Positions 14,791 to 44,305 of a stretch of 64,000 nucleotides of DNA are shown here, piece after piece. How positions within the stretch are numbered: position 1 is the first letter of the stretch; every line of letters starts with the position of its first letter. The stretch is from Psilocybe cubensis (lineage: Eukaryota). The position numbers and the translations under genes were made by a program. The DNA lies in contig CM039002.1 of NCBI GenBank assembly GCA_017499595.2, positions 2,914,001-2,978,000 on the forward strand, in the 5' to 3' direction. The notes beneath the pieces were generated by a model, which worked only from the letters and a program-made list of their open reading frames with translations, was not told the origin of the DNA and ran no database searches.

Positions 14791-15969
14791 CTAATCGGAT
14801 GAGGTTTCGCTGATCGCGGGGCCGATATGAATAAATGGACTGCCCTCTTCGCTGAAGGACAGTGAGTCCGCAATGGCGTCCTGTGCGCCTTCGTTTACTG
14901 GCGCGCCTATTCACAGTAACTAAGTTGAACGTTTGGAAGCGAATAAACGATGCAGTATACCAATTACTTCTTGTACAAAGTTAAGAACGATTGGGGAGGA
15001 TGGCGCGGGTGTCACGATTCGATAACGTGTACCTGAAGATTCAGATAGAGGGCACACATTCAATTTTGTAATTGAAATTTCTGCGTTGAATTTCCTCACC
15101 GTTGAATCTTCCCGTTTCCAAGCTTCGTCTCATGAATAACGCAGGGTCCTATATGCAATGTCAATGTGTTAAACTCAGAGATAAATCTGAGATATGTAAC
15201 CGTGCCCACCGTTCCTTGAAAGATCCCTGAGTTTAAACATCAAATTTAAATTTCAATAAAAACACACCTTCTTCCCCCAAAGCATTACCCATTATCTCCC
15301 CGACCTATTGGTTTGTAATCAGTCGAGAGCAGAGTGCACTGTTGGACCATTATTATTACCTCTTCCCGTGCCGACTCATCTACAGGAGATGCTGAGCTCC
15401 CTCTGGCTGCAATTTAATCAAATCAATTGGTCTTAGATATGTACTTTTTTGCCGGTCTTCCAGGTCATAATATACGAACCTTCTGAAACGGAGTCCTCTG
15501 AGTCCCGTTCCAACTCTCCTGGTCCAAGCCAGAGGTGTGCAATCGCCTGTATTACCACATCTTCCATCGTACACGTTTTTTTCTTTTTTGGGATGAGTGC
15601 AAGGAATGAAGGTAAGAACATTTAGAATGGTGCTCGGTAGACAGAACATACTTTGTAATCCGTCATGAGCGTTGTGTACATGTCGGTATAGTTTTCTACG
15701 TCTGTTTTTTTAATTCTTGATAATAGTTTGTTTTTATGCTTAATAACATTTGACTTCAAGCTACCGTCGCCTTAGTATGATATACAGTGGATGAAACGGA
15801 TGTCTTACATTGAAAATTGTTGCATCTTTTCCTTTGCCAATTCTCGGTCTGTCTCGATAGTATCTATAGCCTCAATGCAAAGGTCGATCGCTTGTATCAA
15901 AATCTTCGCGTCATCAACAGGTTTAAACTGTAATTTGAGTGCTTTTAAAAAGTTCGGTAGGTTCGGCAT
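14791..15969 (-). CDS. Unknown helical protein family copy X1 (IDxCI / LWxGPG motifs, acidic tail)
   Basis: Exons MPNLPNFLKAL...IDLCIEAIDTIETDRELAKEKMQQF / LKSNVIKH...YTTLMTDYK / ...AIAHLWLGPGEL. The last exon (APVNEGAQDAIADSLSFSEEGSPFIHIGPAISETSSD*) is homologous to the last exon of X3. The first two intron positions are shared with X2 and X3. Confidence 0.75.
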
Positions 15970-16498
15970 ATTGACGTGGGTGGTCAAAGGGACGGAAAGT
16001 AGAATTTTCAAAAACTACCGTAGACGCAATGGTACTTATAATGTTAACATGCACACAACACTGATTTGGCAGAGATATCGATCGGTAAGACTAGATGTCT
16101 TCCTGAGTCATCAGACTCGTCTTCTATATGCCACGTCAAGACGTCATGGTGGTGTGTACAGTGTGTGTCGCAGTGACTTATCAGTTTGACCGAATCGGAT
16201 ATGATAAGTCCGATCCATCGATAATAAGAAGCACTGTAGAACGTGGATTTCTGAGGTTTTGGGACTGTTAAACAGGACGTTGAAACAGATGAAGAATGTT
16301 CAGCCAACTTTAGTTACAGTGCCGTACTCTCACAACCTGAAGAATTCGTGAGTCATGAGGTGACTGTGAATCAAATGGGATCAAATGTCGGCCTAAAAGA
16401 GTCTAAAGGTCCCTATTGTTCTACTCCAATCCTTATCGTTGGGCCATATTATCTTATATAGGACTATAGCCCCAAACATGGATTGAGTAGTTGCGTTT

Positions 16499-18025
16499 GG
16501 AGGAAGTGAAATTTGATGTAGTACCACCGACATTAGATTTTCCCTCTACCTCATGATTACGTTCTTACGGTTCAGAAGCACCGAGAATTATATTTAGGGG
16601 ACTAGGGATTGCGTTCATCACACCTAATAAAATACACTACATGGCTTCAAGAAAAGCGTGATTATTTCCATGTTCGTGTAGTTGTAATATGAAAAGATGT
16701 TTATCGCGTGGGGTTCCATCCAAACCGAACTTTCACCCTGTCGAAGGTCGACAGCTTCAGGGTAGGGGGGGCTCCATCGGGGATTAATTTCTCCGATTTC
16801 CATCGCCATATACGACTAGTCATTCTGCCAGTTTTTCTTGAATCTTCGATGATTTTCTTACATATATCGACAGAACCTGCCGCATTGGGTCGATCGTTTG
16901 GATTTGTCTTGGTCATGGCGTCAGCTAACTCAGAAAACGCATCAAGACCTTTATATTTCTGTTCTACTGCGTTAATATAATGCTATGGCTTGACTGAAGC
17001 GCTAGTAGCATACCTCGATACACTCTTTAAAAACATTTCCCAGCTGGTATATATCGACCATAAAAATGTCACACCACTCCGGCTTCGACATCTCTGGGAC
17101 GGTTCGGTCTTGACCCCATCGTCCTCGTCCTTTTGCATCTTTGCTTTGACATCTGACAGAGATTCCAAAGTCAATAATATAGTACTGAACAGGCTGAACG
17201 GTCCATCGTGGCTTCCAATGAAATTTTTTGAATGGTATTCCAGTGTGAGAATCCCAGCGCGAAAAGTGGCTTCCCTTTGGAATCACTTTAGAAATGTCCA
17301 TCATTATATTACCCCAACACATATCCCTGATAGTTTCTAAACGTCAATGTCGTGAATAATCACAGGGGTACAAGGCAAATACCTGTGTGCCACATTATGT
17401 TCGTGCAAAAACTCGAGTCCCTGTGGGTTCGTTGATTCAGGACTCAGTGATAGTTCCACTGTTCAGAAAGAAGGAAAGCTCACTTGGAGTATCTGTAGAG
17501 CAAATTCAGAGAATTCTCCAAAAAATCTAAACGGAAGCAAGTGAAAGGCTAGAAGCTGAGGCATAACCAAAAGGGCATGAGCATCATCGCCCGGAATCAT
17601 GATGACGTCTAGTATAGGCACAGAGCAATTTCTGGGATCCTCTTTCCATGTTTTAGAAGACAGAAGCGTAGCAAGCGGAATCTCTTGAGAGTCGGTTGAT
17701 ACTTTCTTGAGAACGACCTTCTGACCGTTGTCTAGTTTGACTGCATCATTTAAAACGGCTAGCTTCATGAAGAAATATAAGTAGTTAGTGCCATGCAGAA
17801 TAGTCAAGAAGGAAAGGACCAAACTGTGCCCAGACAATCCTCGCACATGATGGGAGAGGGCCGTTTTTTGCCCCGCTTTACCTGACGCCATGAAGGTACC
17901 CAGTTTGGATCATATCTTGGTCGAAGACGATAGCCCCGGTGTAGAAGAAATGGCTGCATAGTGATCCAGAACTTCTCGTGTCCATAAATCAGAAACATAT
18001 GGTCAGGTTCGGTCGACATGGTGAG
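16499..18025. repeat. Direct segmental duplication, copy 1 (partner 22872-24400, offset ~6375 bp)
   Basis: Sequence and ORF-track translations are essentially identical between the two copies. Confidence 0.95.
16701..18019 (-). CDS. AgaK1-type fungal protein kinase K1 (5 exons)
   Basis: FW..MQPFLLHRGYRLRPRYDPNWVPSW N-terminal signature, VVLKKV, HRDMCWGN split by an intron, YYIIDFGIS, GQDRTVPEM, VDIYQLGN, PNDRP. Four GT-AG introns. Confidence 0.9.
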
Positions 18026-18573
18026 TGTTCAATTTACGGTTTGTAAGTATTAAAATATGAACATTTACCCACGTTTTCACACAACATAGTGGCTGTGTAT
18101 GGTTGGCGGAACATCTTCACATCAGATTCCCACATCAGGTCGTTGTCTTGCCCGTCCAATCGGCGCGGCGGAGCCAAAATGAGTACAACATAATGTCTAA
18201 CGTCTCGCTACTAATGACGTTGAGAAGTACTTACCGTGAAAGATATGTACCTAGTAATCCGTACTGGATAAGAGTTTTTTTCACGCATAACATACTTAAA
18301 ATGCTCACATTTCTTATCTCAATTAGGCGCCGGATCTTCTATTTATAAGTTGTCAGTCTACCTTAATAGAAGATCGACCGGCCAACAGCAACGTTGTCTT
18401 ACGAGAGTGTGTGGCAGCTAGCTTCATACCATGGGTACGTATACGTAACTCACAATTTCACGCTCATTTTCCTATTCGTTTCATTGACATTTAAAGATCA
18501 AATTTAGTGAGCAATAAAAGAGATACAGGTAATTCAAAGTCGCCCCTACACGGGCCACGCCAGTCTAGGCTTG

Positions 18574-19894
18574 TCAGATTGCTGTCCGCCCCTCTATTCT
18601 TCACGATATCCATACATGAGTCGATCTGCAAAGTGGAAATGAAATACAACCTACCATATTCATCTTCACGGGCAACAGCAGAGGTGCTCTCATTAATTGT
18701 TTCAATGGTCTGAGGCTCTGCCTGAGATGTTGGCACCCGAAGATGCATTCCCTACGTCGCCTTTTTGTGGGGATTAACTTCGGAGGTGTGGAATGGTAAA
18801 GGATGAAGCATACCAAGCGCTTGGAAGACAGAATCCAAAAACGCAGAGGATGGTATCGGAGTGACAATACGATAACGCCTCCCTGACCATGGCATACAGA
18901 AATTTAGTTATGCATCTGAGATTTATGCGTCAAATCACACACCATCAGCAAATTTCCGCGCCAATTCTAAGCTCTTTCTCATAATCAGATCTGCGTCCTA
19001 ATCGAAAACGCTGTTTTAATACTCTATGCCATTATACCGCAGACAGTAAAATAGCATTAAAACTACTTGACCTACCTCCCAAGTTCCTTGAATAAATTTC
19101 ACTTTATTTTCAATGAAACAAGATATGAGATCTACATAGAGACACACCTTTTGATGCTAAAGCACTATCGATTAACTCGCCAACCTGCCCGTAGAATCAT
19201 TAGTTGGAAATTCTATCCCAGGAATGAATTTATACCTCGTCCTGAGCAGCTTCATCTACTGGAGATGACATAACCCCAGCTGTCATTCGTCAGATTCCAG
19301 TTACGCGGCTATTCAGCTAACTAAGTAAATGCCACTTACAATCTGTACTTAGTTCTTCATTGTCGCTTGACTGCTGGTCGCTTGACTGCTGGTCTGCGAC
19401 ATATATCGGTGTGGAATTTTCACCGGAGTCTGAGACAATGAGTTTTCCAGGGCCAAACCAGAGGCGCGCGATGGTGTTAATGATAACTTGTTTATTAGTA
19501 ATAGTTTTGTTCTAGTTCAATGTGAGCCTGGATCTGCTAGTGGTTGATAGGGAATGAGAACGTACACTGTAGTCTTGAAGGAGACTATTGTACACTTCAG
19601 TATAGGTTTGGACTTCGTGCGGCTTGACCTTCGTAAACAATTTATCGGTATTTGCGATGATGAACCCTTGGAGCCTAGAGTTCGACAGTGAGCATGAACA
19701 CTTACTATGGAAGGAAAGCCAACATACCGTTTAAATTCTGAAATTTTTCGGTCTGCCAACTTTGGAGTTTTCTCCACGAGTCGAATAGTCGCAATGCACA
19801 TGTCGATCGTACGTATTAAATCTGAGACATCGTCAAAAGGTTGGCCCGAAATAAGCCTCTTCAAGAATGCAGGTATACGCTGTCTTGTTGACAT
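18574..19894 (-). CDS. Unknown helical protein family copy X2
   Basis: MSTRQRIPAFLKRL...IDMCIATI...LADRKISEF / LQGFII...YNSLLQDYS / ...TIARLWFGPGKL; the late exon INESTSAVAREDEY matches X3 ISENSSAVAREECD. The 3' end is provisional. Confidence 0.7.
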
Positions 19895-20544
19895 TTCACG
19901 TGTCGTGTGGTGGTTGTTTCAATACAGGAGGGAGAAACTGAGTTATCCAGGCGCGTTCAGTCAAAGATGCAGTGGTTTATATATTTTGGCACGGTCGATA
20001 TCGATTTCTATTGATTCTGTTTGTGTATTGACGTCCTTCCCACGTCATGTCGCAAGACTTCTGACCTGTCGTGGATCCGTTACAGCGAGCGTGATATCTC
20101 AATTGAATAAAAGAGAGCGAGGGTTTATCCGGGACGTCTCGAGGTACACAAGTTAGGCCCAGTGTCCTGGTACAGTTAGCTAGCAGGTAAACACAGACAG
20201 AATATGAGTATTTCACAGCAGCGGTCAGACCCCTGAACTCTGTAACAATTTCAAAATTGCCATTGATTTATTAAAACAGTCGCCAGCAACAATCCGCGAA
20301 GCGATACTTCAGATTGCTCTGATTTGATCCAGTCATTTGGTTCAGCCTTGTCTAGTTTAGAGAATGGTCCTGTAAATCCGTCGAAAAGGTTGGATAAAGA
20401 CAGGAGACCGGAAAACAAGGAATACTACTACCGATATCTGATCTTCCCTCACCGTCATCCAAGGTGTGATATCATTGTAGGAACCCGTAATTGCTTACTT
20501 TGAAAAGAAAGATCTTTATCCATAAAAATTGAATTAGCATACAT

Positions 20545-21830
20545 TCAAACTGTAGGATTCCATCCACATCTGACTTGCATCCTCTCAAGTGTTGTAAGCA
20601 TTAAGCCAGAACCTAACTTTCCATCGAGTAGCCTTTTGATCTTCCATACGCGATTGGTCATATTATCCGTTCCTGTCGCGTCAGCGATGATCTTCTTGCA
20701 CATGCGGACAGACTCCGCAGCAGTGGGCCGTTCGTTTGGATTCTCCTTTGTCATCATATCAGCTAGTTCAGCAAAGGCATAGAGGCCTTGGTAAGTCTGA
20801 CATTCCAAGTTAGCTTCAGGTCATTCAGAATCTTGGTAACGTACCGAGAGGCATTGTTTGAACACATTTCCCAACTGGTAAATGTCAACCATAAGAAGAT
20901 TGCACCATTCGTTCTTCAGCATTTCTGGTACAGTCTTGTCTTGACCCCATTGCCCCAAGCCTAGAGCATCTTTGTCCAGGCATTTCATAGAAATTCCAAA
21001 GTCAATGATGTAGTATTGAACAGGCTTCACAGACCATCGTGTCTTCCATTCAAACTTCTTGAATGGTTTCCCTGTATGAGAGTTCCACAGTACAAAATGG
21101 GTTCCTTTAGGGATGACCTTTGAAGGGTCCATCATTATGTTGCCCCAGCAGATATCTCTGTTGTGTATACATATGAGCATTCGCGATAAGTTCGGCTGTA
21201 TAGGGCTCACCCGTGAGCTATGTTTCCGTCATGCAAAAATTCGAGTCCCTGTACGTTGTTGAATACGAACGTCAAGTCCTAGCATAAAGCACCGACTTGC
21301 CTGCAATATTTGTAAGGCAAACTCGCAAAATTCTCCAAGAAACCTGAATGGAAGCAAATGGAAGGCTAAAAGCTGAGGCATCACGATGAAAGCATGGTCA
21401 TCGTCGCATGGGATCATGATGACGTCCAATATCGGAACACAGCAGTTCCTGGGATCCTTCTTCCACTCTTTTGAGGAAAACGTCGTGGCAAATGGAATCT
21501 CTTGCGTCGCTGTTTCTACTTTCTTGAGAACAACCTTCTGACCGTCCTCCATTCTAATTGCGTCGATCAAAATGTCTCCCTTCTTGAAGAATCGTTGATA
21601 AACGGTTGGTATACATAATAAAAAATAAAGGACTCAACTGAAAATAGACTGTCTTCGTACAGCAAGGGATTAGGGTCCTTACCAGGCTTGACCTGCAGCC
21701 ATGATGGCTTCCAGTTCGGGTCGTATCTTGGTCGTAGTCGGTACCCTCGTTGCAGAAGAAATGGCTGAATATCGACCCAGAACTGCTCCCACTCACGAAT
21801 CAGAAAGAATTCATCCGACAGGGAAGACAT
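20545..21830 (-). CDS. AgaK1-type protein kinase K2 (catalytic loop HGD)
   Basis: Same motifs and intron pattern as K1; spliced CAC-GG|A-GAT gives HGDICWGN. Inverted paralog of K7. Confidence 0.9.
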
Positions 21831-22387
21831 GCTCGACGACGTTTGAATTGTGAGTGTAAACGTTTCGACAAACTGACGTTACAAACCTTGACCCATGATT
21901 CCCACCCTAGTCAGACGTTGCCCAATCATTTGATTAGCGGACCAATCACCTGGTTCGCGGCTGCCATCCGATATCGGTTTCACCATTTACCATACTCTAT
22001 TTTCAAAGTGCCTTAAGTATGTCACGTCGTCTGTGAATAAAAGCACTGAAGTAAAAGCTAGTATACATAGTTTCAATTCTTTGATTGCCATTTACGAGAA
22101 AATGCAACTCAGTGGTCATACGTAGATTGGAAGAAATTTGGAAAACCGAATTTTGATCACGAACGATTCGTGGTCATAATTATCACTTTTTCAACATTTT
22201 TTCGCATTTTATGCATCTGTAACCATTGAATGATTTGATAACTTTATTTAAAAAATTATCCGCATGTTTTATTGAAAATGGACTAGTTGACCAATTTTCA
22301 AAGAACTGTGAGATTCAAGGCGCATGTGGTTCGTCATCGGACATAACCGACGATTTTTTTGGGTTTCTGTCACCATACCCTGACGCC

Positions 22388-22594
22388 GACATGGCCCCTC
22401 TCGTGGACGACCAGAACCCTCTGTATTTCCCAGGTATAACTGCGGATGCACACTTTCAATCACTTCGGAGAAGTCTCTCGCATTTCAAAGCGTTCACAGA
22501 ATAGTTCCTCACAGTCGGGATCTTTCTCTATAGTTTGTTCATGTCTTTGGAAGGATTTCACATAAAGCAGACGCAGGTTCTGATGCTAAAGAAG
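22388..22594 (+). pseudogene. Decayed 5' fragment of the LRR gene at 26243
   Basis: MAPLVDDQNPLYFPGITADA matches 26243 onward. A 2-nt insertion (tctctcg vs tctcg) shifts the frame into a stop; homology ends at ~22594. Confidence 0.85.
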
Positions 22595-22871
22595 CTCAAA
22601 ATCGCCGGGGACCTATAATAGCCTCAACACGTTTTGACCACTATACTATCCAGCCCACCGTTTGACCCCAACCTCACGACACTCGAGCATTGCAAACCCA
22701 ACAGGACGGACATGCTCCTCCTCGTCCAAATCTCCATTCCGCCTCATTTCAAACGCCTTCTTTCTCTTCGGCCCTCCAAGCCCACTAGCTCTAGACTCCT
22801 CGACTATCCTGACGCAGCATACAAGTGGCAATTAATGAACTTTTTTTTCAAGTAGAAGAGGAAGCATTCTG

Positions 22872-24400
22872 GGAGGAAATGAAATTTGATGTAGTACCAC
22901 CGACATTAGATTTTCTCTCTCTACCTCATGATTGCATTCTTACAGTTTAAAAGCACCGAGAATTATATCTAGGGGATTAGGGATTGTGTTGATCACACCT
23001 AATAAAATACACTACATGGCTTCAAGAAAAGCGTGATTATTTCCATGTTCGTGTAGTTGTAATATGAAAAGATGTTTATCGCGTGGGGTTCCATCCAAAC
23101 CGAACTTTCACCCTGTCGAAGGTCGACAGCTTCAGGGTAGGGGGGGCTCCATCGGGGATTAATTTCTCCGATTTCCATCGCCATATACGACTAGTCATTC
23201 TGCCAGTTTTTCTTGAATCTTCGATGATTTTCTTACATATATCGACAGAACCTGCCGCATTGGGTCGATCGTTTGGATTTGTCTTGGTCATGGCGTCAGC
23301 TAACTCAGAAAACGCATCAAGACCTTTATATTTCTGTTCTACTGCGTTAATATAATGCTATGGCTTGACTGAAGCGCTAGTAGCATACCTCGATACACTC
23401 TTTAAAAACATTTCCCAGCTGGTATATATCGACCATAAAAATGTCACACCACTCCGGCTTCGACATCTCTGGGACGGTTCGGTCTTGACCCCATCGTCCT
23501 CGTCCTTTTGCATCTTTGCTTTGACATCTGACAGAGATTCCAAAGTCAATAATATAGTACTGAACAGGCTGAACGGTCCATCGTGGCTTCCAATGAAATT
23601 TTTTGAATGGTATTCCAGTGTGAGAATCCCAGCGCGAAAAGTGGCTTCCCTTTGGAATCACTTTAGAAATGTCCATCATTATATTACCCCAACACATATC
23701 CCTGATAGTTTCTAAACGTCAATGTCGTGAATAATCACAGGGGTACAAGGCAAATACCTGTGTGCCACATTATGTTCGTGCAAAAACTCGAGTCCCTGTG
23801 GGTTCGTTGATTCAGGACTCAGTGATAGTTCCACTGTTCAGAAAGAAGGAAAGCTCACTTGGAGTATCTGTAGAGCAAATTCAGAGAATTCTCCAAAAAA
23901 TCTAAACGGAAGCAAGTGAAAGGCTAGAAGCTGAGGCATAACCAAAAGGGCATGAGCATCATCGCCCGGAATCATGATGACGTCTAGTATAGGCACAGAG
24001 CAATTTCTGGGATCCTCTTTCCATGTTTTAGAAGACAGAAGCGTGGCAAGCGGAATCTCTTGAGAGTCGGTTGATACTTTCTTGAGAACGACCTTCTGAC
24101 CGTTGTCTAGTTTGACTGCATCATTTAAAACGGCTAACTTCATGAAGAAATATAAGTAGTTAGTGCCATGCAGAATAGTCAAGAAGGAAAGGACCAAACT
24201 GTGCCCAGACAATCCTCGCACATGATGGGGGAGGGCCGTTTTTTGCCCCGCTTTACCTGACGCCATGAAGGTACCCAGTTTGGATCATATCTTGGTCGAA
24301 GACGATAGCCCCGGTGTAGAAGAAATGGCTGCATAGTGACCCAGAACTTCTCGTGCTCATAAATCATAAACATATGATCAGGTTCGGTTGACATGCTGAG
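22872..24400. repeat. Direct segmental duplication, copy 2 (partner 16499-18025)
   Basis: Near-identical sequence including introns. Confidence 0.95.
23076..24394 (-). CDS. AgaK1-type protein kinase K3 (near-identical to K1)
   Basis: Same exons as K1 with only a few N-terminal substitutions (HMFMIYEHEKFWVT vs HMFLIYGHEKFWIT). Confidence 0.9.
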
Positions 24401-24770: not shown

Positions 24771-26057
24771 TCAAAGTCGAGGATTCCATCCACATCTAAC
24801 TTTAATTCGATCAAGGGTGCTAAGCATCAGGGCGGAGGTTTTTCTGCCATCCAATGGCTGATCCAGTCGCCATACACGTTTGGCCATTTTTCCCGCTTCC
24901 GTTATATCAGCAATAATCTTTTTGCACATGCGAACAGATTCTGTGGCAGTTGGCCGTTCTTTTGGATACTCCCTCGTCATAGCATCGGCTAGTTCAACGA
25001 AGGCATTGAGGCCTTGGTATCTCTAATATTCTATGTCAGCTGCAGGTCAACCAAAGTATTAGTAACATAGCGTGATACATCGTTTGAATACATTTCCCAG
25101 CTGATATATGTCAACCATAAAAAGATTACACCATTCGTTCTTCAGCATTTCTGGTACCGTTCGGTCTTGACCCCATTGTCCAAGTCCTCGAGCGTCTTTG
25201 GATAAGCATTGCAAAGAAATTCCAAAATCGATGATGTAGTACTGAATAGGCATTACGGACCATCGCGTCTTCCACTCAAACTTTTCGAACAGTTTCCCTG
25301 AGTGAGAGTTCCATCGTACGAAATGGTTACCTTTCGGAATGAGTTTGGACGTGTCCATCAGTATATTGCCCCAGCAAATATCCCTGACATTTACGTACAT
25401 CAAGATCACGTTAAATGAAAAGGGTAGAGGCTCACCTATGCACGATATTATACTCATGCAAAAACTCGAGTCCCTTATGGGGTACGATCAGAACCTAATT
25501 TCAAATATGCAAAGCTAGCGTACCTGTAGAATTTGAAGAGTAAACTCGCAGAATTCTCCAAGAAACCTGAAAGGGAGATGGTGGAAGCCTAAAAGCTGGG
25601 GCATAACCAAAAGAGCGTGGTCATCGTCGCATGGAATCATGATGACGTCCAATATCGGAACACAGCAATTTCTAACATCCTTTTTCCATTCTTTGGAAGA
25701 GAAAGTCACGGCAAATGGAATCTCCTGCGAATTTGTTTCCACTTTTTTGAGAACGACCTTCTGACCGTTCTCCAGCCTGGTTGCGTCTAGCACAATGTCA
25801 CTTCTCTTTGGAGCATGAATAGTTGTTTGATTATGTTTAAAAACTAATATAAACGACTCAACTATACAGACACTGTCTTCGAACACGATAGGAGAAGGGT
25901 GCTTTTTCCCTGACTTGCCCTGCAGCCACGACGGTGTCCAATTTGGATCATATCTTGGGCGGAGACGGTACCCTCGTTGCAGAAGAAATGGTTGAATGTT
26001 GACCCAGAATATTTCATCACTGTGAATTTGATACAGAGCTTCAATTGAATTGGACAT
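24771..26057 (-). CDS. AgaK1-type protein kinase K4
   Basis: MSNSIEALYQ...GYRLRPRYDPNWTPSW...VVLKKV...HRDICWGN...DFG...VDIYQLGN. Inverted paralog of K6. Confidence 0.9.
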
Positions 26058-26242
26058 GATAAGTTGAGGCCCAATATGAGAAGGAATGGGTGTCCACCGC
26101 GACAGCAAATGCGAACTGACGTAAGCATCCCCTTCCCAAATATTTGAAGTCCGCTTGTACTCCGCTTAATAAACTGGGGAAATCGGTTCAACTTTCGACC
26201 GACCAGAACACTGGCCAAGCCAGCGACACCGCAGATTTTGAC

Positions 26243-27815
26243 ATGGCCCCTCTGGTGGACGACCAGAACCCTCTGTATTGCCCGGGTATAACTGCGGATG
26301 CGTACTTGCAATCACTTCGGACAAGTCTCGCATTTCAAAGCGTTCATAGAATGGTTCCTCACAATCGGGATCTTTCTCGATCGTTCGTTCGTGTCTTTGG
26401 AAGGCTTTTACATAAAGCAGACTCGAGCTCTGAGGCTAGAGAAGATACGTTCATGGATACTTGCGATCTATCGGCTCAAGGATGTCTGGTTGACCACTGC
26501 TCGTCCGAGGATTTACCCCCCTATTCTCCCTTGTCTTCAGCTCGGGAGAAACATGATGCTCAGGGCACACAAGGACGTCAGACAGAAGGCATTCCTCTGA
26601 AGCGGAAAAGCCATTTCAGCGATTTCTATGCCCCTCCAAAGTATGCTCGGTCTTTGGAGTCGCCTCATAATAGCTCTTTTGATGTCGAGACTTTCCACGA
26701 AACACTTTGTTACGATGTTTCAGGTTCAACACCACAGTTCACAGATACTTTGGCGCAGAATAAGGATGATGTCTCTATCTTGCTAAAAACGTTTCGTGGC
26801 CTCTTTCCCGACTTGCATCTACAAGACAAACTTGCCAATGTGGATCCGATCACCGTCCAGGCTATTGCAGATGTCCTTTGCGAGCATGGTATTCCGAATA
26901 CGTCTTATTCCGTGGTTTTAGTAATATATTGCTACAGGTTATATAAACGAACGATCGCTCAAGGTTTTGTGCTATACATCCGTCGAGCGCATTATCCTTG
27001 CTCCATCCATGTCCGACGAAAATGGCCTCAATCTTGCCAGGGATGGCATATACTCTGGTATTTCTTCCTCAAAGCTCGTTGTTCAACGCCGTAACAATGT
27101 TCTAGTCTTCAGGCACACCGATGGGTTCCAGACTTTGACTGAGCTCTCTTTTGCCGGTATCCGTATCAATGATTCCGACATTCAACATATTCAACGTTTG
27201 CCAAGGCTCTCGATCCTCCATTTAAACGAGGTTGGCATTGGGAACGAAGGGTATTTGCATCCATTTAGTTCTGTATCCATTGACGCCAAAGATATGCAGC
27301 GTATTTCTTTTGGTTTCTCTCAAACATACTCTTACAAAACTCTTTCTGACGGCCAACCACGAGGTTAACAACGATGCTGTTCCTGCTCTGCTCTGCCTCA
27401 ATAACCTGGTCTTTCTGTCTATTCTGGACACTGGTATTGATATGGTTGGATTACGGCGTTTGGCTGGACATATGCACAAGGAAGACCACGTCATGGATAT
27501 CGAAATACCCTTCTCCTGTGAAGCATACGTTGACAGTACGTCGTACTTTTTTTCTGTTATTGTTGTAAATAACTTTCAAAAGACATCGCTTCTCAGTATC
27601 TCTTGCATCCCATACCACCATTGATCACAAACCCGCATATATGCAGTCATCTATCGTCTGCGGCCCTCAAACGCAACCTCGAGGCCCATGCAGCGCGAAA
27701 TTCCTCGATCGTCGCCTCTGGTACACGCCTTGAAATGATCGAAAGGTTGACTAAAATCCTGGAGACTAGGTTGCTTGACCTTCTGGTTGTTGAAATGCTT
27801 GATGGCGGCTGCTAA
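26243..27815 (+). CDS. Leucine-rich-repeat (RNI-like) protein
   Basis: Spliced exons give LTELSFAGIRINDSDIQHIQRLPRLSILHLNEVGIGNEG and LTKLFLTANHEVNNDAVPALLCLNNLVFLSILDTGID (LxxLxLxx repeats). Head-to-head with K4, with ATGs 186 bp apart. Confidence 0.8.
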
Positions 27816-30485: not shown

Positions 30486-32339
30486 TCAGGTCTTGAACTC
30501 GAATGATTCTACCCGGCGAATGCACTTCGGTTGTGGGTTGGTTTTTTCTTCCTCAGTGAGGAAAAACGGCCACATGGGTATATAACACATCTCCTGCCGT
30601 AATGTACATTGTAAGTCTTTCAGCTCCATCGCTCGCACATTAAATTCACTAACCTCATAGCCGCATGCCGGGTTGCACCTAACCCAGTAGCTCCAGTCAA
30701 GCCATTCCATCAGACCTTTCACTCGATTTTTCCAGATCACCAAGGTCTTGAAATCTGTACCCGTTAATTGCTGTGAAGGTAGTTCGATATCCGGTCCATC
30801 CAAGCCCATCACCATCCCTTCGGCCCAGATTCCAACTAGGGCAGTACATATCTGTTTTGAAACCCCGTTGATGGATTTGACGATGAGCTGCTCAGAGATC
30901 GCCAAATTAAACTGCTCCAAGTCTCTAGTATGCGCATCACTGCACTGTTTATAAACAGGCAACGCCCAATCATGGTTTGTACCCAGCGTTGTGGGCATGT
31001 TGGACAGAGATGACCAAAGTAAGTAGGGGGCAATCATGCTGGAAACCTGGCGATGAGCCTGTTTTAAAGTCGCGTTGTAGTCGGTGTTGCCATTTGCAGA
31101 GCTCAGAATGTAGTGTAGTAACTCAAGCCTCTCTGCGTATCGAGTGACGACGACATTTTGCAAGCTGTTCCAATCGAGGCCGTTCCCGGGGTCGGAGGAT
31201 CCCTGGGTCAAAAGGGCATCTAGTCGAGCTTTGAAGCGATTTACTTCCTGTGTGGTGATCTTGTCAAGCCTATGGGCGCGACGATCTTTACCTGCACGGG
31301 AACTATGGAGATTCGGGAACAAGGACGTGTCGTAGAAGGAAATTAAACGTGAATAATCGAGTTTGATGCGCGTTTCTCCTGGATAGTGATTGTGCCAGGT
31401 TCCAGACTCTAACAATCTATATGCTGTCGAAAGGCGCAACGGATATATTTGGGGATTCTTTGGGTTGTCAGGAAAAAATGATTTGTGTCGTGCATTGTCG
31501 GCTGCTATGATATTTAGGAACGAAGAGATTTTGACGCCTCGAGAGAAATCGCAAAGCATGATCTCGCTACAGTGATTTAACACTGGCTTGCTTTGAAAAT
31601 TTTCGGAAATGAAGACTTACAAATTTATTGCCATTCTTTTTGTGCTGGTGAGACGACGTACAAGGCGTTATTAGTTCCAGCAGACGTACCTAAGAAAGCC
31701 ATCCAGTGCGTACTGCTGCCCCCATTCGCACAACCGTCCAATCCTTTCTCCTTCTTCCCATGTCTTATTCGGCATAACTTGGTCCCAAATCAGTAGGTCC
31801 TGACTGTCCATCACTCCTTCCGACATCTTGGCTGCGCTGCTTCCGTCAAAGTACAGCAGTTTTAACGGACGTGTGGTCATCAGAGTCAAGTGCCAGCATC
31901 CCGAGTCCGTCGACAGACTGCGACAGAAGCTGAATGAATGCTCCGGATCAGTGGCGACCCATTCAGGACTTTGTGGTACCTCATTTTTGGATGTGCCGTG
32001 GTACAACAAGGTGCCTACCGGTACTTCCGCGGCAACAACGGTATGTCCTGAAAGGTTTGCAAGTTAGTTTCGTTGGAAGCATGCGATGTGAAGATACTCA
32101 CCGTTTCGGTACCTGGTATTCGGCCACTTTTGAAGAAGGGATGACACCGTATTGAAGATCAGATTGTCTGGGCTGTGCACCGCACCCGATTCAAAAATCA
32201 CGTCGTTGGCAAACTCTGATTTGTCTGAAGAACTAAACAGGTGTTGGCGGCTGAGACCATATGCAAATGGTGCACTCGTGATGAAACAAAGATACATGGC
32301 ATAAATAGGCCATCTGAAGGAGCTGTCTCCCAACAGCAT
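30486..32339 (-). CDS. Uncharacterised fungal protein, probably secreted, paralog 1 (LYHGT family)
   Basis: NLIFNTVSSLLQKWPNTRYRNG, GTLLYHGT, PEWVATDPEHSFSFC, RPLKLLYFDGSSAAK, LDGFLR, microexon MAINF, EIMLCDF, LMEWLDWSYWVRCNPAC. Paralog at 48160-50097. Confidence 0.85.
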
Positions 32340-34745: not shown

Positions 34746-35141
34746 AGTATGGTATGAAGAGACCTGCGGGTGTCCTCTGGAGGTTTTATAGCGTTTGTGA
34801 ACGAGTCAACTTGCGGAAGCGATAAAGATCCGCACCTGCGCTTCCGGAGTTATTGACTCACGGCATCGATGTGATCAGTGTAGACTTGACATGAAGAACA
34901 CCCCGTGCGTCTTGTCCTGGCTTTTGATTTTCTGCCTGATTGCGCGATCATGAATAGAATTCCAACTTGAAAGAAACAAATGTGTTGCAAAAGAGTGACG
35001 TTGAACAAATGAGTGGCAAAAGTGACAAAGAGTGACGTTACCTGCTTTACACGTGCTTTAGTGACACAGTGTAACGCGGTGAAAGTTGCCACTGTCAAAT
35101 TTTGTTGACAAGACGCGCAAAGTTGAACTAATGGCCTAGAA

Positions 35142-35822
35142 ATGGTCAGATTCAAAGTAAGCATTTATATAAAGCTCCTGTGCTCAATATTGAGTTTAAA
35201 AAGGCCTTAGAACCGTTGGCTTCTCGTTGAATTCATACCTGTTCTACAAGGGCATGCCCAACTCGGCAAATCCACGTTCGGGAACGGTTCGTTGTTGGAT
35301 GGGAAAGCAATATGGGCTTCCTTGAAGCAGAGTGTGTTGACAAACTTTGGTGACACGGGATGGGGAGCTGTAGGATTGTCTCTCACTGGTATGTCGCAAA
35401 GAATAACCTTTCCGATGTATGTAACCTTTTTCAGTCAAATACTTTTCGCCTACGACGAATATTTGTATCATACGCGTTGCCCGAGATCAGCATAACGTTG
35501 CATGGGGAGCTTTAACTCTTCTCTCTATCATTGATGGAGTAAGATATATCCCGAATGTCGTCCATGTATCAGGTACGTCAATTTTTTCGTCCCATGTGTC
35601 AAGCACTAAAGGTGAGTTCAGGAACAATAAAGCATGCCCAACTATCCGCCATATCACACAACAGAGAAGTCATAGCTCGTTACCGTGCATTAGCCAAGAA
35701 CAGTGGTATGTGATCTGTTAATCGCTTTTTTTCCTGATTTAAAGTTCGTTTCAGATTACGATGACATTTATGACACCTATCTTGATAACAGCGAACGAGA
35801 AATAGAAAGTCTTCAAGATTAG
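35142..35822 (+). CDS. POP5: RNase P/MRP subunit Pop5 (Rpp14/Pop5 family)
   Basis: MVRFK|NRWLLVEF, IWASLKQSVLTNFGDTGWGAV, KYFSPTTNICIIRVARD, HVSGTIKHAQ. Confidence 0.9.
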
Positions 35823-36370
35823 CCGCCAGATTTCGATGCTCGGCTTTCGAATCGTGCTTTCCACTAGAGTTATCACTTTACAGGACTTTTCATAATGGGC
35901 AACTGTTTCTAAGGGCAAAACCCGCGAACAAACGCCCAAACGTCCACCGTTTTGCCTGTCTTTTGCTTCAAATCTTCTCATAACGCTCTGAAAATGACCA
36001 TATAGTCTCTGATCTGTATAATGAAACAATTTAAACAGTTACATTTAGTATCAGCGATTTAGGTATTGTATCTGTTGGATCTTGTTCTACAGCAAAATTG
36101 CGGCGTAGTTATTATTTTCCTCGGCAAACCCTAACCTCAACGACACCGATATCGTAACCTGCAAAATTTGGGGTAAATCTTTTTTATGAATGTCAAGGGT
36201 TTTCTCCCAACCGTATTTTGCTCTTCTTTCTTTTGTATTTATCGCTTCGGAAAGCCCCAAGAGCTCCATGTTTTAACGCCACGGCAATAAGACCCGACGG
36301 CAGCCGAAACCGGGGGTTATATTAGGACCAGAGTTTTTCGTCTTTTCTTGCTTTCTTCCTCACTTTCAAA

Positions 36371-37816
36371 ATGGAATCCAGGAGTGCACTGGCGGGAAAG
36401 CTTCAAGCTGCATTATCGTCTAGAGACGAGAGATGGATCCGTCGACGACTTCCAGATCCAAACACATCATCCTCGAATTCGCCGTTGATCGACTTTAACT
36501 CAAATGATTATCTATCTCTCTCAGCCTCATCAAAGTTGCGTTCCCACTTTCTCAACAAGCTCGCAGAGTCCCCTGACGTGCTAGGATCTGGGGGATCGAG
36601 GCTGCTTGTTAATGGACGCGCTCACGCAGCGTTGGAAGCTCGTCTGGCCGAATTTTTTCGCTCAGAGACCGCCCTCTTGTTCAACTCCGGGTTCGACGCC
36701 AACGTCGGATTCTTCTCGTGTATTCCTCAAGCGGGGGATGTGGTGGTCTACGATGAGTACATACACGCATCTGTCCACGACGGCGTTCGATCTTCGCGTG
36801 CCAGGGATGCCCAGTACTCGTTCAACCATAACTCGATGACCGACCTCCGGCAAGTTTTGTACCGTTTGAGGGAGGAAAAGGCCGCTTTGCGTACTGCAAA
36901 AAGCAGTCTGTTTCTCGCGGTGGAAAGCTTGTACAGCATGGATGGAACGTTTGCGCCATTGAAGGAGATTGCGGACATATTGGACGAGGTTTTCCCTCTC
37001 AAAAATGGATATCTGGTGGTGGATGAGGCTCACTGTACCGGGATATATGGACCACAAGGCAGGGGACGCGTTGCTATGCTCGGATTGGAGGGCAGAGTAC
37101 TGGCGAGGTTGCATACATTCGGAAAAGCACTGGCTGCGACAGGAGGTACGCATCTTTCTCTATTCCTCAATCGGTTTCTCATGTGGGGTCGCCTTTCAGC
37201 GGTGGTAATCACAAATACCCTTATTAGAGATTATCTATTAAATTACGCGCGATCGCTTATTTATACTACATCTCTCAGCTATGCGAACATAGTAGCTGCA
37301 GACTGTTCCTTTGATATGTTAATTGACGGCACTGCTCAGCACGTAAGTCGTTATATTTCTCCACCAACATCTTCAGGCTAATTGCAAAACTAGTTGTCCA
37401 ACCATCTGTTCGAACTATCCACGTACTTTACCGATACTCTCCGTCCCCTCCTCATATCCAAAAATATCCCGGCAGCGCTTGTCTCCTTGCCATCCCACCT
37501 TCATCTCCCGCCCGCATCCTCCCCACAACCCCCTTCCCCGATCATACCCGTTCTAACTCCCCATCCACGCCCACTCTCCGCGTATCTCCTCGCCCTGGGC
37601 ATGAATGCACGACCTATCACCTGGCCGACGGTGCCCAAGGGAAAAGACCGCGTGAGGGTGTGTTTGCACGCAGGAAACACCAAACAGGATGTGGATGCCT
37701 TAATTAAGGGGATCGTGGCGTGGGCACTGGAGACTATGAAAGGGGACTCGTCTGACAAGGCTATTCTATCGACTAGAAAGGTTGCGCTCCATGGACTATT
37801 AGAGAGCAAATTGTGA
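36371..37816 (+). CDS. bioF: 8-amino-7-oxononanoate synthase (class II PLP-dependent aminotransferase family)
   Basis: DFNSNDYLSL, GSGGSRLL, FNSGFDAN, DEYIHASVHDG, ESLYSMDG, VDEAH, HTFGKAL, PTVPKGKDRVRVCLH. Two introns. Confidence 0.92.
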
Positions 37817-38307
37817 CGGAACATGTATGATTATTCTACTTCTCGGAGATGCTTTTAATTGATCAAAGATAGTGACTTTTATCGCGGCAGTGAGAAGCGA
37901 ATGTTTTGTTCAGAGCAACTATTAACCCCTATTCGACACGACGAACAATCCGTCTAAAAATAGTCGGCATAGTATTTGCTTCCGAGTCTCTGTTTCGTAT
38001 GGAATCGAGGCAGGCTAGTTCAGTGTGAATGTAGCTGATTGAGGTATACGTTAAGTTCGGTTGAATGCCACCCGTTATCACGACAGAAATGAAAAGAGAA
38101 GTGTCTGCTGACCATCTATGGTTTACTTGAATACAACCCTGGACTCTCGAAACCAGCTTTTCGATGATCAAAGATGTCTCGCATTGCCCCATGTTGATCT
38201 GTGACGTAGACGTATAGACATCGTGAAACAGTTTCGCATGCCGCATATAAAAATCACACTTCAGCCACTTTCCAGATTGAAGAAACACATACGAAACCGT
38301 TAAAGCC

Positions 38308-38895
38308 ATGTCGATTTTCTACTACGAGCCCTTTTACGACTTCGAACAATTCCTCGACAATGCACTCACTACTCGCTCCAAACCAGAAGGGGCGATCCAG
38401 CTACGTTCGAAAGAAGGAGACAACAGTATCACCACATTGAGGCCCAGGTATGTGTTTGTTTCGTTGTTAAAGAATACCGGTTTACAGTCCTATCATCCGA
38501 TACAGAATGGACCTTCATGAAGACTCCAAACAGAACATCGTGACTGCTACTTTTGAACTTCCCGGTCTCAAGAAAGAGGACGTTGACATCCAGGTCAACA
38601 ATAATCGTTTGACCATCTCCGGTGAAAGCAAAATATCTACTGAGAAGGAAGAAAACGGATATGTCGCCAGAGAGAGGCGGTTCGGGAAGTTTTCGAGGAC
38701 ACTCCAGCTTCCTCATGGCGTCGAGGTCCGTCGGTGTTGCTGTATTTGCAACATTTTTTTCGCTCACGTCAATTTCCTGGTTTTTTACAGGACAAACAAA
38801 TCAAAGCTGGGTTGGACAATGGTGTGCTTACTGTCACTTTCCCCAAGTCTGTCGCTCCGAAGGCGCAGGAATCGAAGAAAATTACCATTAATTAG
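38308..38895 (+). CDS. Small heat-shock protein (HSP20/alpha-crystallin family)
   Basis: LRPRMDLHED, TATFELPGLKKEDVDIQV, RERRFGKFSRTLQLP, IKAGLDNGVLTVTFPK. Two introns; TATAAAA at ~38246. Confidence 0.95.
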
Positions 38896-39193
38896 TAATT
38901 TCTGCACTTGCTTCATCAATTTCCCATCCCTCTTAAGTCGTTTGTAAACGAGTTTTAATGGTACATTGAACGCATACATTTAAGCTCATGTTAATGGTTC
39001 ATAGTATGTTCATGGTTACACAAGATCAGTGGGACATTGAGTGGAGAATCATCTATTTGCCAACAATGGCGAATAGAATTCAGAGCTTCCGTCATTCTCA
39101 CACGCCGGGTGCCTAGTTCGTTTGTTACGTTAGTTTGCCGTTGCAACACAACCACAACATAAGTGCCCTTCCTCTATCATACCTGGGCTCACC

Positions 39194-40483
39194 ATGTCCT
39201 CCGACACTGAAGAATTCTACTTGATTCGTGAGTGGGAGCAGTTCTGGGTTGATATTCAGCCATTTCTCCTGCAACGAGGTTACCGACTACGACCGAGATA
39301 TAATCCGAACTGGAAACCGTCATGGTTGCAAGGTAAGGCCGGAAAGCACCCTGTTTTGTGTGAGGACGGTATACTTGCAGTTGAGTCCAATCTGAAGTTG
39401 TTTCGATGTGTTCAAATTGTTTCTCAACGTTGCTTCAAAGAGGGGAGAAACCGTGATCGACGCAATCAGACTGGAGAACGGTCAGAAGGTTGTTCTCAAG
39501 AAAGTAGAAACAGCGTCGCAAGAGATTTCGTTCGCCACGGCATTTTCCTCCAAAGAGTGGAAAAAGGATCCAAGGAATTGCTGTGTTCCAATACTAGACG
39601 TCGTCATGATCCCATGCGATGACGACCATGCTCTCATTGTCATGCCTCAACTTTTAGCTTTCCATTTGCTTCCATTCAGGTTTCTTGGAGAATTCTGTGA
39701 ATTTGCATTACAAGTACTGCAAGTAAGTTTTTCTTCTTGCTAGGAAATGGATTCGATACTCACCAACGTATACAGGGACTTGAGTTTTTGCACGAGCGTA
39801 CAATAGCTCACAGGCGAGTCTTGTATAGCTTACGCTTACCGCAAATTCTCATGTAAATAATCACCAGGGATATCTGCTGGGGTAACATAATGATGGACCC
39901 TTCAAAGGTTATTCCCAAGGGAAACCATTTTATACGTTGGGACTCTCATACAGGGAAGCCATTCAAAAAGTTTGAATGGAAGACACGGTGGTCTGTAAAG
40001 CCTGTGCAATATTACATCATTGATTTTGGGATTTCTGTGAAATGTCTAAACAAAGACGCTCGAGGATTGGGGCAATGGGGTCAAGACAAGACTGTACCAG
40101 AAATGCTGAAGAAAGAATGGTGTAATCTTCTTATGGTTGACATTTACCAGTTGGGAAATGTGTTCAAACAATGCCTCTCGGTACCTCAATAACATTTTGG
40201 TTGACCTGAAACTGACTTGGAACATTAGAATTACCAAGGCCTCGATGTCTTTGCTGAACTAGCTAACGCTATGACGAAGGAAAATCCAAATGAACGGCCC
40301 ACTGCAGTGGAGTCTGTCCGCATGTGTAAGAAGATCATTGATGACGCTACTGGAACGGGGACAATGACCAGTCGCGTATGGCAGCTGAAGAGGCTTATTG
40401 GTGGAAGGTTAGGGTCTGGCCTAATGCTTTCTACAATTGAAAGGCTGAGAGTCAGATGCGGATGCCAGAATCCTCTACTTTGA
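39194..40483 (+). CDS. AgaK1-type protein kinase K5 (intron 3 has a GC donor)
   Basis: Same motifs and exon structure as the other copies; intron 39814-39867 begins GCGAGT. Confidence 0.88.
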
Positions 40484-40599
40484 TTATACTTATCCTATGG
40501 CTAAGGACGGGGGTGCTCAGAGTCACCCAAAATTAGACGCAGCTTATCGGTAGTATTTTTTTGTGTTGTCCTGCTTGTAATCAACAATCAACCTTTTCA

Positions 40600-40695
40600 A
40601 CACGTCAAGTTTCTAATTTTTACAGGATAAATGAATCAGAGCTTGGTTGGACAATGGCGCAGCCTGAATCTAAGAAAATCATGATCAATTATTGA
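40600..40695 (+). pseudogene. Remnant of the last intron and exon of the HSP20 gene
   Basis: cacgtcaa..tttacagGATAAATGAATCAGAGCTTGGTTGGACAATGG..GAATCTAAGAAAAT aligns with 38765-38895, with an internal deletion and a stop. Confidence 0.75.
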
Positions 40696-41018
40696 TCAAT
40701 TACTTTATCTTATAATTCATGTTTTTGACTCCCATGTATATAAAGTCGCGTGTAGATTTAACCCATGATGCATGATCCTTAGTGGTTCCCAGTTTTTAGA
40801 CTAAGGGGAGATAGCTATGTCTAGGTACGCTGCTTTTCTTCATCTAATCGAATTCTGGAACATGTCGGGCTGTTAAGCGGAGTAAAAGCGGGCTTCAAAT
40901 ATTTTGAAATGGAACGCTTACGTCATTACTACTAGTAGTTCACACAGTTCGTAAATGCGTTTGCTGTCGCGATACACCCCCATTCAACGCGCCTTCTCAT
41001 ATTGGGCCTCAACTTATC

Positions 41019-42305
41019 ATGTCCAATTCAATTGAAGCTCTGTATCAAATTCATAGCCATGAAATATTCTGGATCAACATCCAACCATTTCTTCTGCAAC
41101 GAGGGTACCGTCTCCGCCCAAGATATGATCCGAATTGGACACCGTCGTGGCTGCAGGGCAAGTCAGGGAAAAAGCACCCTTCTCCTATCTTGTTCGAAGA
41201 TAGTGTCTGTATAGTTGAGTGGTTTATATTGGTTTTTAAACATATTCAAACAACTATTCATGCTCCAAAGAGCAGAGACATTTTGATAGACGCAACCAGG
41301 CTGGAGAACGGTGAGAAGGTCGTTCTCAAAAAGGTGGAAACAAATTCGCAAGAGATTCCATTTGCCGTGACTTTCTCTTCCAAAGAATGGAAAAAGGATG
41401 TTAGAAATTGCTGTGTTCCGATATTGGACGTCATCATGATTCCATGCGACGATGACCACGCTCTTTTGGTTATGCCCCAGCTTTTAGGCTTCCATTTTCT
41501 CCCTTTCAGGTTTCTCGGTGAATTCTGTCAGTTTACTCTTCAAGTCCTTCAGGTATGTTAGCTTTGCATATTTGAAAGTTGGTTCTGATCGTACCACATA
41601 AGGGACTCGAGTTTTTGCATGAGTATAATATCGTGCATAGGTGAGCCTCTACCCTTTTTATTTAACGTGATCTTGATGTACGTAAATGTCAGGGATATTT
41701 GCTGGGGCAATATACTGATGGACACGTCCAAACTCATTCCGAAAGGTAACCATTTTGTACGATGGGATTCTCACACAGGGAAACTGTTCGAAAAGTTTGA
41801 GTGGAAGACGCGATGGTCCGTAATGCCTATTCAGTACTACATCATCGATTTTGGAATTTCTTTGCAATGCTTATCCAAAGATGCTCGAGGACTTGGACAA
41901 TGGGGTCAAGACCGAACGGTACCAGAAATGCTGAAGAACGAATGGTGCAATCTTTTTATGGTTGACATATATCAGCTGGGAAATGTATTTAAACGATGTA
42001 TCACGGTATGTTACTAATACTTTGGTTGACCTGCAGCTGACATAGAATATTAGAGATACCAAGGCCTCAATGCCTTCATTGAACTAGCCGATGCTATGAC
42101 AAAGGAGAATCCGAACGAACGGCCGACTGCTACAGAATCTGTTCGCATGTGCAAAAAGATTATTGCTGATATAACGGAAGCGGGAAAAATGGCCAAACGT
42201 GTATGGCGACTGGATCAGACATTGGATGGTAGACAAACCTCCGCCCTGATGCTTAGCACCCTCGATCGAATTCAAGTTAGATTAGGATGGAATCCTACAC
42301 TTTGA
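41019..42305 (+). CDS. AgaK1-type protein kinase K6
   Basis: Close inverted paralog of K4; HRD, DFG and the Lys of VVLKK are intact. Confidence 0.9.
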
Positions 42306-42944
42306 ACTATACCAATCCTTCTGCCGGCCTACTGTCCGTGCTGCAAATGCGTTATAAGAGTATTAGCTCTTTTTTTATCTACAATCATATACCATACTAT
42401 CACAGTATCATATTCCTCGGAGAAGAGTTCATGTTCCCACAATGGTAGATCATCAATGCCCATCTCATCGAGAAGGTTTAATTTAGAAAGCAAAATCAGA
42501 TATCGGCAGTATTTCGTTGTCTGCCTTGCCTTTATTCAACTATTTCAATGACATTTCGCAGGGCCAATTCGAACAGGGCAGGGATGCCCCAGATACCTGG
42601 TATCTAGAAAGAAGCAGAACGATTCGAGACATTGATTCACAGAATGGGGTAGACACATAGCCGATATAGAGCCATGATAAGGACAGTAACAGCGGTTGAG
42701 ATATCTGCAAATTCTTGGACGGATGTCCTTTCCGTCGGCCCCCTGACAATAATTGCTTTACTCGTATATCACCGCACAAAAAGAGATGTCTAGTTTTTGA
42801 CATGGGAAGAACATCGGGCAGCCATAGCAATCGATATCATCTGGTGAATATATATCACCGTTACCTTTGACTGCATGCGTCGGAAAATATCAAATCTCCC
42901 TCCCCCTCTCTCAATATTCAAAGACCGTCTATTCGATACGAAAT

Positions 42945-44305
42945 ATGTCACACACAAAGCCTATACCCACCTTAATCAAGAAGCTTACGTCGAAAAAATC
43001 TGTCAAGGATGCCTCCTCTCTACTTAGAACCATCGATCTCTGTATTACAGCTATCAATGCAGTGGAGTCAAACCGAGAGTTGGCAGACCAAAAAATCCTT
43101 GAGTTTCAGATGTATGTTGTCATGAATATCCGTACCTTTCCACACTTCATTCAAATCAAGGCTTCAAAAATCCATCACCGAGCACATTAACACTCTGTCA
43201 AAAAAGATCAGGCCAGCCCAGGTCAAAGACTATGCAAACAAATACAACAGACTCCTGACGAATTATGGTGTATGCCTTTTCTGCCCTGTTGATTTATATC
43301 TTTTCATCCCGATTGACCCAGGAAAGAACTGTGACGAAGAAAGACATTATCCTTACGGCCATTGGGCACCTATGGTTTGGTCCCGGACAACTCATCTTGC
43401 CGGACTCTAGTACCCCTTCCGTAGACGAATCCGCCAGAGAAGAGGTAATGCTTAAGTATTTATATTATCTCTCCGACTCATGATTATATTGCCAGGTTGA
43501 GGATATGGTTGTTGATGCGCTATTAAGGAGTGGTATGTCTCCATGTTGCTCTCATGATACTTCATTTTATTTAGAACCATGTGACAATTCGTCTGAAGGA
43601 TCTGGAGAGGTGGGTCAACTAGTGTCAAATGCTACCTATCTCCATGCGATCTGTTGGTATGGAGTAAGCTCACCGCCTTTCTTCCAGGAGGCGGACGCAA
43701 TCATTAGACAGAGCTTAGAGTCGGTAGAGAGATTTTCTAATGGTAGGTTACTTGATACATGAGTCCCAATTACAAACCTTAATGGCCATACTTTGTGGAC
43801 AGGTTTACGCCATCGCATTGTCTCCTTAGAACCATCCTCGCCAATCTTTCTTGAGCACTTGAACAATGCCCTCGGTACGCCTCAAACTTCTTTTCTCCAA
43901 AAACTTGAAACTTAGTTGCTACCAACAGCCGCATTAGGGTATGAAAGTGAGGAATCAGGTACTCACGACAACATTGAAATTAGTTCTGCAATTAGTGAGA
44001 ATTCTTCTGCTGTCGCCCGGGAAGAATGTGATGGTAAGTGTTATTTGCTACTACTCCTGTCGAAGTTTGTCAACTGACTTTTCCATACCATCCTCCCTAA
44101 TTGTTCTTGACCTTGTACACGAAGTAATTGGTATACTGCATAATTCATTTACCTCCAAACCGGTAAACTTAACAGACTGTGAATAGGCGCGCCAGCAAGA
44201 GACGGCGCTCAGAACGCCATTGCGGACTCACAGTCTATCAGCGAAGAGGGCAGCATATTTCTTCATATTGGCTCCTCCATCAGCGAAACCTCTTCTCTTG
44301 GGTAG
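42945..44305 (+). CDS. Unknown helical protein family copy X3 (about 9 exons)
   Basis: MSHTKPIPTLIKKL...IDLCITAINAVESNRELADQKILEF / LQKSITEHI...YNRLLTNYG / ...AIGHLWFGPGQL, then short acidic exons ending ...SISEEGSIFLHIGSSISETSSLG*. Confidence 0.75.

Follow-up and report, generated by a model that had tools for sequence, protein, structure and literature searches.

Orphan genes behind three kinases of a Psilocybe cubensis gene array probably trace to one ancestral adjacency

A stretch of 64,000 nucleotides (nt) of the Psilocybe cubensis genome (contig CM039002.1, positions 2,914,001 to 2,978,000; hereafter the window) carries seven protein kinase genes, K1 to K7, and three members of a small orphan gene family, X1 to X3, each of which follows a kinase. 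Both the genes and the pairing stand up to scrutiny, and the pairing is of single origin. On balance, X probably stands behind these kinases as a co-duplicated neighbour, by an accident of history rather than as a requirement. X itself is a genuine gene family under purifying selection. The kinases and X genes lie as follows (lengths in amino acids, aa).

14791..15969, minus strand: X1, predicted 9-exon orphan gene, 235 aa
19894 to about 18655, minus strand: X2, predicted orphan gene, at least 242 aa, 3' end approximate
42945..44305, plus strand: X3, predicted 9-exon orphan gene, 265 aa, with an X2-like 5' part and an X1-like last exon
16701..18019, minus strand: K1, kinase with 5 exons, 360 aa, HRD and DFG intact
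20545..21830, minus strand: K2, kinase, 358 aa, HGD replacing HRD, GC-AG intron 2
23076..24394, minus strand: K3, recent copy of K1 (99.2% aa)
24771..26057, minus strand: K4, copy of K6 (93.9% aa), intron-4 donor CT, no X
39194..40483, plus strand: K5, kinase, 357 aa, 83% to K2, no X
41019..42305, plus strand: K6, kinase, 359 aa, with spliced K6-type contigs
44965..46250, plus strand: K7, copy of K2 (96.4% aa), HGD, no X downstream

Origin of the kinase-X pairs

K1, K2 and K6 are followed, after 731, 650 and 639 bp, by X1, X2 and X3 in the same orientation, as the first-pass annotation had described; its caveat that four of the seven kinases have no X also holds. Evidence for a single origin came from comparison of the pairs. 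K2-X2 and K6-X3 are collinear, with identities of 75% in the kinase, 61% in the X promoter and N-terminal domain (N-domain) and 61% in the X tail, and the spacer between kinase and X retains 66% identity over 123 nt (z 5.4 for the whole spacer). The proportion of differing synonymous sites (pS) is 0.56 for K2/K6 and likewise 0.56 for the N-domains of X2 and X3; it is 0.65-0.71 for pairs involving K1 and 0.77 for pairs involving X1, the most distant X. Because K2-X2 and K6-X3 are collinear, their ages match, and K1 and X1 are the outgroups, one ancestral kinase-X adjacency appears to have been copied twice. All three pairs thus trace to one adjacency, and none of 23 related kinase loci elsewhere in the genome has an X-like sequence in the 10-kb stretches examined, so that the repeated pairing does not serve as evidence of a two-gene module, the use to which it had been put.

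The kinases without an X are younger copies, with pS of 0.02 for K3, 0.10 for K4, 0.16 for K7 and 0.39 for K5. Their similarity stops at the kinase stop codon or no more than about 200 bp from it. The segment copied into K3 (22872-24400) ends about 530 bp before reaching the X1 start, and no X remnant was seen behind K3, K4, K5 or K7 in comparisons of the window DNA. Collinearity, matching ages and matching tree shape point to two block duplications of an ancestral kinase with X behind it, within a tandem and inverted array, giving K1-X1, K2-X2 and K6-X3; these duplications would fall in the Psilocybe cubensis lineage. Later, shorter duplications copied the kinase alone four times, as K3, K4, K5 and K7. 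Recombination may also have placed an X1-type 3' end on X3, where the similarity itself is plain:

44088..44666, plus strand: X1-like graft, with a degenerate exon in X3 intron 8 (86%), the last exon (80%) and the 3' flank (69%)

X2 and X3 lie about as near to the kinase that follows them, whose start is at most 636 bp and 659 bp away, as to the stop of the one before, and a unit of X followed by kinase (X2-K1, X3-K7) was considered. It fits worse, since only the order kinase-then-X is both collinear and age-matched. The arrays also carry copied pieces of their neighbours: K4 and K2 share a scrap of a neighbour that resembles leucine-rich repeat (LRR) genes, and K5 and K6 share a scrap of an HSP20 neighbour. 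A 58-nt piece of the HSP20 region upstream of K5 (38765-38822) recurs upstream of K6 (40601-40657).

22388..22594, plus strand: truncated copy of the LRR-like gene, 88% to the 5' end of the gene at 26243, upstream of K2

The X genes and their products

Each X gene can be modelled from the DNA alone as an open 9-exon frame with GT-AG introns. The database model of X2 (JR316_0006380, protein P0001) has its first seven introns identical to those of the rebuilt model, and that of X1 (JR316_0006378) skips the middle exons. Database proteins matching the window are annotated as hypothetical proteins of Psilocybe cubensis. The N-domains are 41, 41 and 46% identical between copies, and their local alignment scores of 232-279 bear out the shared domain, since 500 shuffles of each pair scored no higher than 53-54. 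The motifs listed in the first-pass annotation are present; the WxGPG motif is invariant in all three copies, and the residue after the Lys of the LAxxK motif is I or M. The conserved intron positions reported there were also recovered. Intron 1 (phase 2, after residues 53-55) and intron 2 (phase 0, after residues 90-92) are common to X1-X3, and five more introns have the same position and phase in all copies of the rebuilt models. The tail had been described as acidic and Ser-rich, which it is, but it contains another conserved domain as well, in which about 50 residues align at 44-56% identity between copies.

The proportion of differing nonsynonymous sites (pN) is lower than pS in both X domains for every pair (at least 299 of 300 bootstrap samples), with N-domain values of 0.33-0.38 for pN against 0.56-0.77 for pS. 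K1, K2 and K6 are 67, 67 and 75% identical, with pN of 0.15-0.20, and the X copies are therefore more diverged than the kinases, as had been judged by eye.

X would be a soluble protein with no transmembrane segment, in which a helical N-domain of about 110 residues is joined by an acidic linker to another helical domain, and an acidic tail rich in Ser and Thr follows. The highest 19-residue hydropathy is 1.1-1.3, with no hydrophobic stretch of membrane-spanning length, and an amphipathic basic helix stands at the start of the N-domain. That domain is predicted to be all-helical with four main helices, in low-confidence models (pLDDT 49 and 52). Such a protein would most probably act as an intracellular protein-binding adaptor.

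A 9-mer, ATCGATATC, precedes each X gene at nearly the same distance from the start codon and is followed by a TATA-like element.

16074..16082, minus strand: ATCGATATC of X1, 113 nt before the ATG
19997..20005, minus strand: ATCGATATC of X2, 111 nt before the ATG
42830..42838, plus strand: ATCGATATC of X3, 115 nt before the ATG

The window holds four copies of the 9-mer where 0.57 would be expected, and none of 100 shuffles reached four. The fourth copy (48253-48261) lies immediately upstream of the right-hand member of an inverted paralog pair (30562-32161 and 48302-49937) with 59% DNA identity.

The kinases

The seven kinases have five exons and 357-360 aa each, K1-K4 forming an array on the minus strand and K5-K7 an array on the plus strand. 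Catalytic Lys, HxD, N and DFG motifs are present in all seven models, and K5 intron 3 is GC-AG. K6 matches Pfam Pkinase at 39.6 bits (cut-off 31.7); the match to Pkinase_fungal reaches only 12.5 bits against a cut-off of 24.1, which sets the window kinases apart from FunK1. With a limit of E 1e-20, a search returned 210 relatives; of the 120 listed, all that carry an organism name come from Agaricomycetes. Among these listed matches, the closest relatives from outside the window, which include Galerina GALMADRAFT_76876 and kinases of Agrocybe and Pholiota, are 46-55% identical. In a tree of 28 rows, 21 of them listed outside relatives, K1-K7 group together in a clade of their own (100/100), which is as narrow as the X family and from which K1/K3 branches first. 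K1-K7 are presumably of the AgaK1 type, although the 120 relatives listed, out of 210, include neither a protein named AgaK1 nor one from Coprinopsis.

None of the listed sequencing runs is recorded as RNA, but two RNA-like runs of one study yielded GT-AG-spliced contigs that cover K6/K4 and the HSP20 gene. Intron 4 of K4 (25070-25023) has a CT donor, and a K4-type contig retains it. At another joint, splicing begins from a donor 8 nt further upstream, which would shift the frame; the correctly spliced contig is K6-type. X3 and K7 have no contig cover in these runs, gaps that are uninformative either way.

Distribution of X and the neighbours of related kinases

Searches of the 46.6-Mb, 21-contig assembly, in which the window is C5:2914001-2978000, found three copies of X only, at both protein and DNA level. 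Beyond the genome, a profile of the first X exon retrieved two proteins among 534 candidates, both from the window itself, and a 151-position X profile run against 1.84 billion representatives retrieved the same two Psilocybe cubensis proteins only; the X profile was built from three sequences, and by our estimate could miss relatives below about 25-30% identity. Metagenome scans with an X2 pattern (210 matches) and a kinase alignment (139 matches) confirmed no kinase-X locus. No fused kinase-X protein was found among 126 proteins, the long Gymnopilus match consisting of two merged kinases. X matches no Pfam family, its search against PDB sequences gave one match at E 8.6, and an Atlas feature search returned only unrelated bacterial helical clusters. 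No published account of X or of an AgaK1 partner was found in a literature search that most subscription journals lay outside.

A search with one kinase exon gave at least 30 genome matches. Of these, 23 lie outside the window, two of them an exact duplicate pair, and are covered by 17 stretches of 10 kb. None of the 23 loci has an X-like sequence in these stretches (best profile E 3.5, compared with 2e-13 or better for X exons). Linkage of X to kinases holds for three of three X copies and, in the DNA covered, for none of the 23 other kinase loci. These loci have other repeated neighbours, in differing orientations: P450 genes (four copies by DNA similarity, one confirmed with Pfam), FunK1 kinases (one confirmed with Pfam, a second by DNA similarity), a head-to-head gene family that also recurs, and an orphan family, Y, on contig C8. 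The same kinase family has dragged along at least four unrelated neighbours in this genome, and if X is likewise only co-duplicated, repeated adjacency in one array is no evidence of a system. The place of X is most probably comparable to that of these other neighbours.

Some observations were made alongside. At C11:2275001-2295000 (stretches L046-L047), related kinases alternate with FunK1 kinase genes. C7:3094001-3104000 and 3230001-3240000 (L048 and L049) form an inverted duplicate whose kinase flanks are 100% identical where aligned; it reflects either duplication in the very recent past or an artefact of assembly. The locus tags of several related kinases from Hypsizygus, Arthromyces and Tricholomella differ by two (Hypma_014745/014747, Hypma_002167/002169, H0H93_001465/001467 and D9615_006618/006620), so that one gene lies between the kinases of each pair.

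The first exons of Y were located in four copies on C8.

L035:567-731, minus strand: Y first exon
L036:8219-8383, plus strand: Y first exon
L039:879-1043, minus strand: Y first exon
L039:5312-5476, minus strand: Y first exon

Partner or passenger

Several observations weigh against X being a mere co-duplicated neighbour. X stayed intact in all three old duplicates until synonymous sites were nearly saturated; there is exactly one X in each of three kinase subclades; all three X copies in the genome adjoin a kinase and none stands alone; and K4, which has no X, carries a defective splice donor. Y shares with X its place at the kinase 3' end and the general layout. The first coding exon of every Y copy found measures 167 nt, as does that of X2 and of X3 (161 nt in X1), and intron phases run 2 then 0 in both families.

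These observations make it possible, if rather unlikely, that X serves its kinase subclade as a dedicated substrate, adaptor or inhibitor. Its helical N-domain would dock on the kinase and its Ser/Thr-rich tail would be phosphorylated, and recent kinase-only copies would be served in trans by the single X of their subclade. The presence of one X per subclade with matching ages and tree shape is consistent with such a pair, as are the purifying selection on both X domains, the 35-50 Ser and Thr residues per X with six S/T columns kept within the well-aligned domains, and the similar placement of Y at the 3' end of C8 kinases. However, block duplication alone suffices to give co-divergence, the X promoter 9-mer is missing upstream of all seven kinases, and 27 of the 30 related kinase matches have no adjoining X in the DNA examined. 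TGACGT was considered as a promoter motif common to kinases and X (two of three X and five of seven kinases, against 14% of background windows and five of 22 other kinases); the enrichment was discounted because the copies are non-independent.

A broader proposal joins X and Y. Under this proposal, AgaK1-type kinases would use small, fast-evolving helical partners at their 3' ends, and X (C5) and Y (C8) would be one diverged family, linked to the kinase ever since the split of clades that are now only 30-38% identical, with one cognate substrate or inhibitor per subclade, possibly within an LRR-flanked recognition locus. Like X, Y is an orphan with a helical N-domain and a low-complexity tail at the kinase 3' end. 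Unlike X, it lies on the strand opposite to its kinase, tail-to-tail in four of the four copies found, and its second exon is 133-136 nt, whereas that of X is 109 nt. The X-Y profile score of 11.6 does not rise above shuffles (11.5 +/- 2.3), a result that also counts against a cognate pair, and homology is not established because sequence similarity sits at shuffle level. The likeness in layout was spotted post hoc, after about four neighbour families had been inspected. We consider this proposal unlikely.

Possible parallels with non-self recognition loci and four-helix executioners

Some parallels exist with the somA locus of Coprinopsis cinerea, which holds repeated pairs of a kinase and a NACHT gene, sometimes an extra kinase, and one conserved flanking LRR gene (10.64898/2026.06.24.733965). 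Its alleles are generally less than 50% similar, and beyond close relatives the authors saw no such arrangement (10.64898/2026.06.24.733965). By analogy, the window could be a non-self-recognition or toxin-antidote locus in which the kinase is the killer and X the guard or sensor, beside a conserved LRR gene. The repeated pairs of a kinase and a partner and the unpaired extra kinases are shared with somA, and the left array of the window is flanked by a single-copy, weakly LRR-like gene, a candidate counterpart of the LRR gene at somA:

26243..27815 (approximate limits), plus strand: LRR-like gene, single-copy, head-to-head with K4

All five of its PDB matches are of LRR type or tubulin chaperone E, all weak (E 0.15-1.3), and Pfam gives LRR_4 at E 0.058 and a faint SAP-like match at the C-terminus.

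There are also differences. The somA partner is a NACHT protein arranged tail-to-tail with highly divergent alleles, whereas X is a small orphan in tandem orientation, of only 235-265 aa, without NACHT or any other known domain. Both DNA runs carry X3, one contig showing no differences and the other run two coding differences, both synonymous, although the comparison is weak evidence, coming from two runs of one study, possibly close kin, with reads of at least 95% identity. Purifying selection on X is evident, and X3 is near-identical in the two runs, with no divergent allele seen. A non-self-recognition or toxin-antidote role for the window is quite improbable.

An all-helical N-domain with four main helices and an amphipathic basic first helix, of a size similar to that of HeLo, HELL or MLKL domains and adjoining a kinase, recalls a four-helix executioner that has become separate from the kinase activating it; fusions of HELL domains to kinases occur in fungi (PMC12881547). 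Sequence comparison gave no signal for the HeLo/MLKL link that had been raised earlier. Even with E as high as 10 allowed, Pfam returned neither MLKL_N nor HeLo for P0001 and P0002, although an MLKL_N positive control was found elsewhere in the same genome at E 5.8e-8, and the X profile compared with that control domain gave a probability of 0.05. The control lies at L067:1501-1824, equivalent to C3:527727-528050, within a 920-aa open frame. PF17111 is unusable as a further control because it has no match above the cut-off in the genome. Fold comparison used low-confidence models, and its negatives exclude nothing: Foldseek with the full X model gave nothing within an E limit of 0.001, and a wide fold search reached at best Z 6.6 (root-mean-square deviation 3.6, 89 residues aligned) with generic helical bundles, no MLKL or HeLo chain standing among its 50 rows. 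With the low hydropathy of X added to the missing sequence match, an executioner role is very hard to credit.

Implications

Expansions of AgaK1-type kinases in Agaricomycetes belong to the 'Other' group of the Coprinopsis kinome, and the accessible part of that account describes no partner gene for them (10.1101/349894). One AgaK1 gene is reported to be induced by bacteria (PMC4704728). The locus described here resembles these expansions in its lineage-specific tandem arrays of compact kinases, with at least 30 matches in the P. cubensis genome, and differs in having a candidate partner gene at three of them.

The window kinases belong to a large family specific to mushrooms, on whose function next to nothing has been published; the four papers found to mention AgaK1 do so once each. 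If X and Y proved to be diverged homologs, the linkage of such genes to these kinases would be ancient. If X is only a co-duplicated neighbour, as we favour, the locus is a cautionary example on reading function from adjacency. A dedicated partner, if true, would offer the first way to the phosphorylation targets of these kinases, and specificity could be tested cleanly on three cognate pairs that differ in their degree of divergence.

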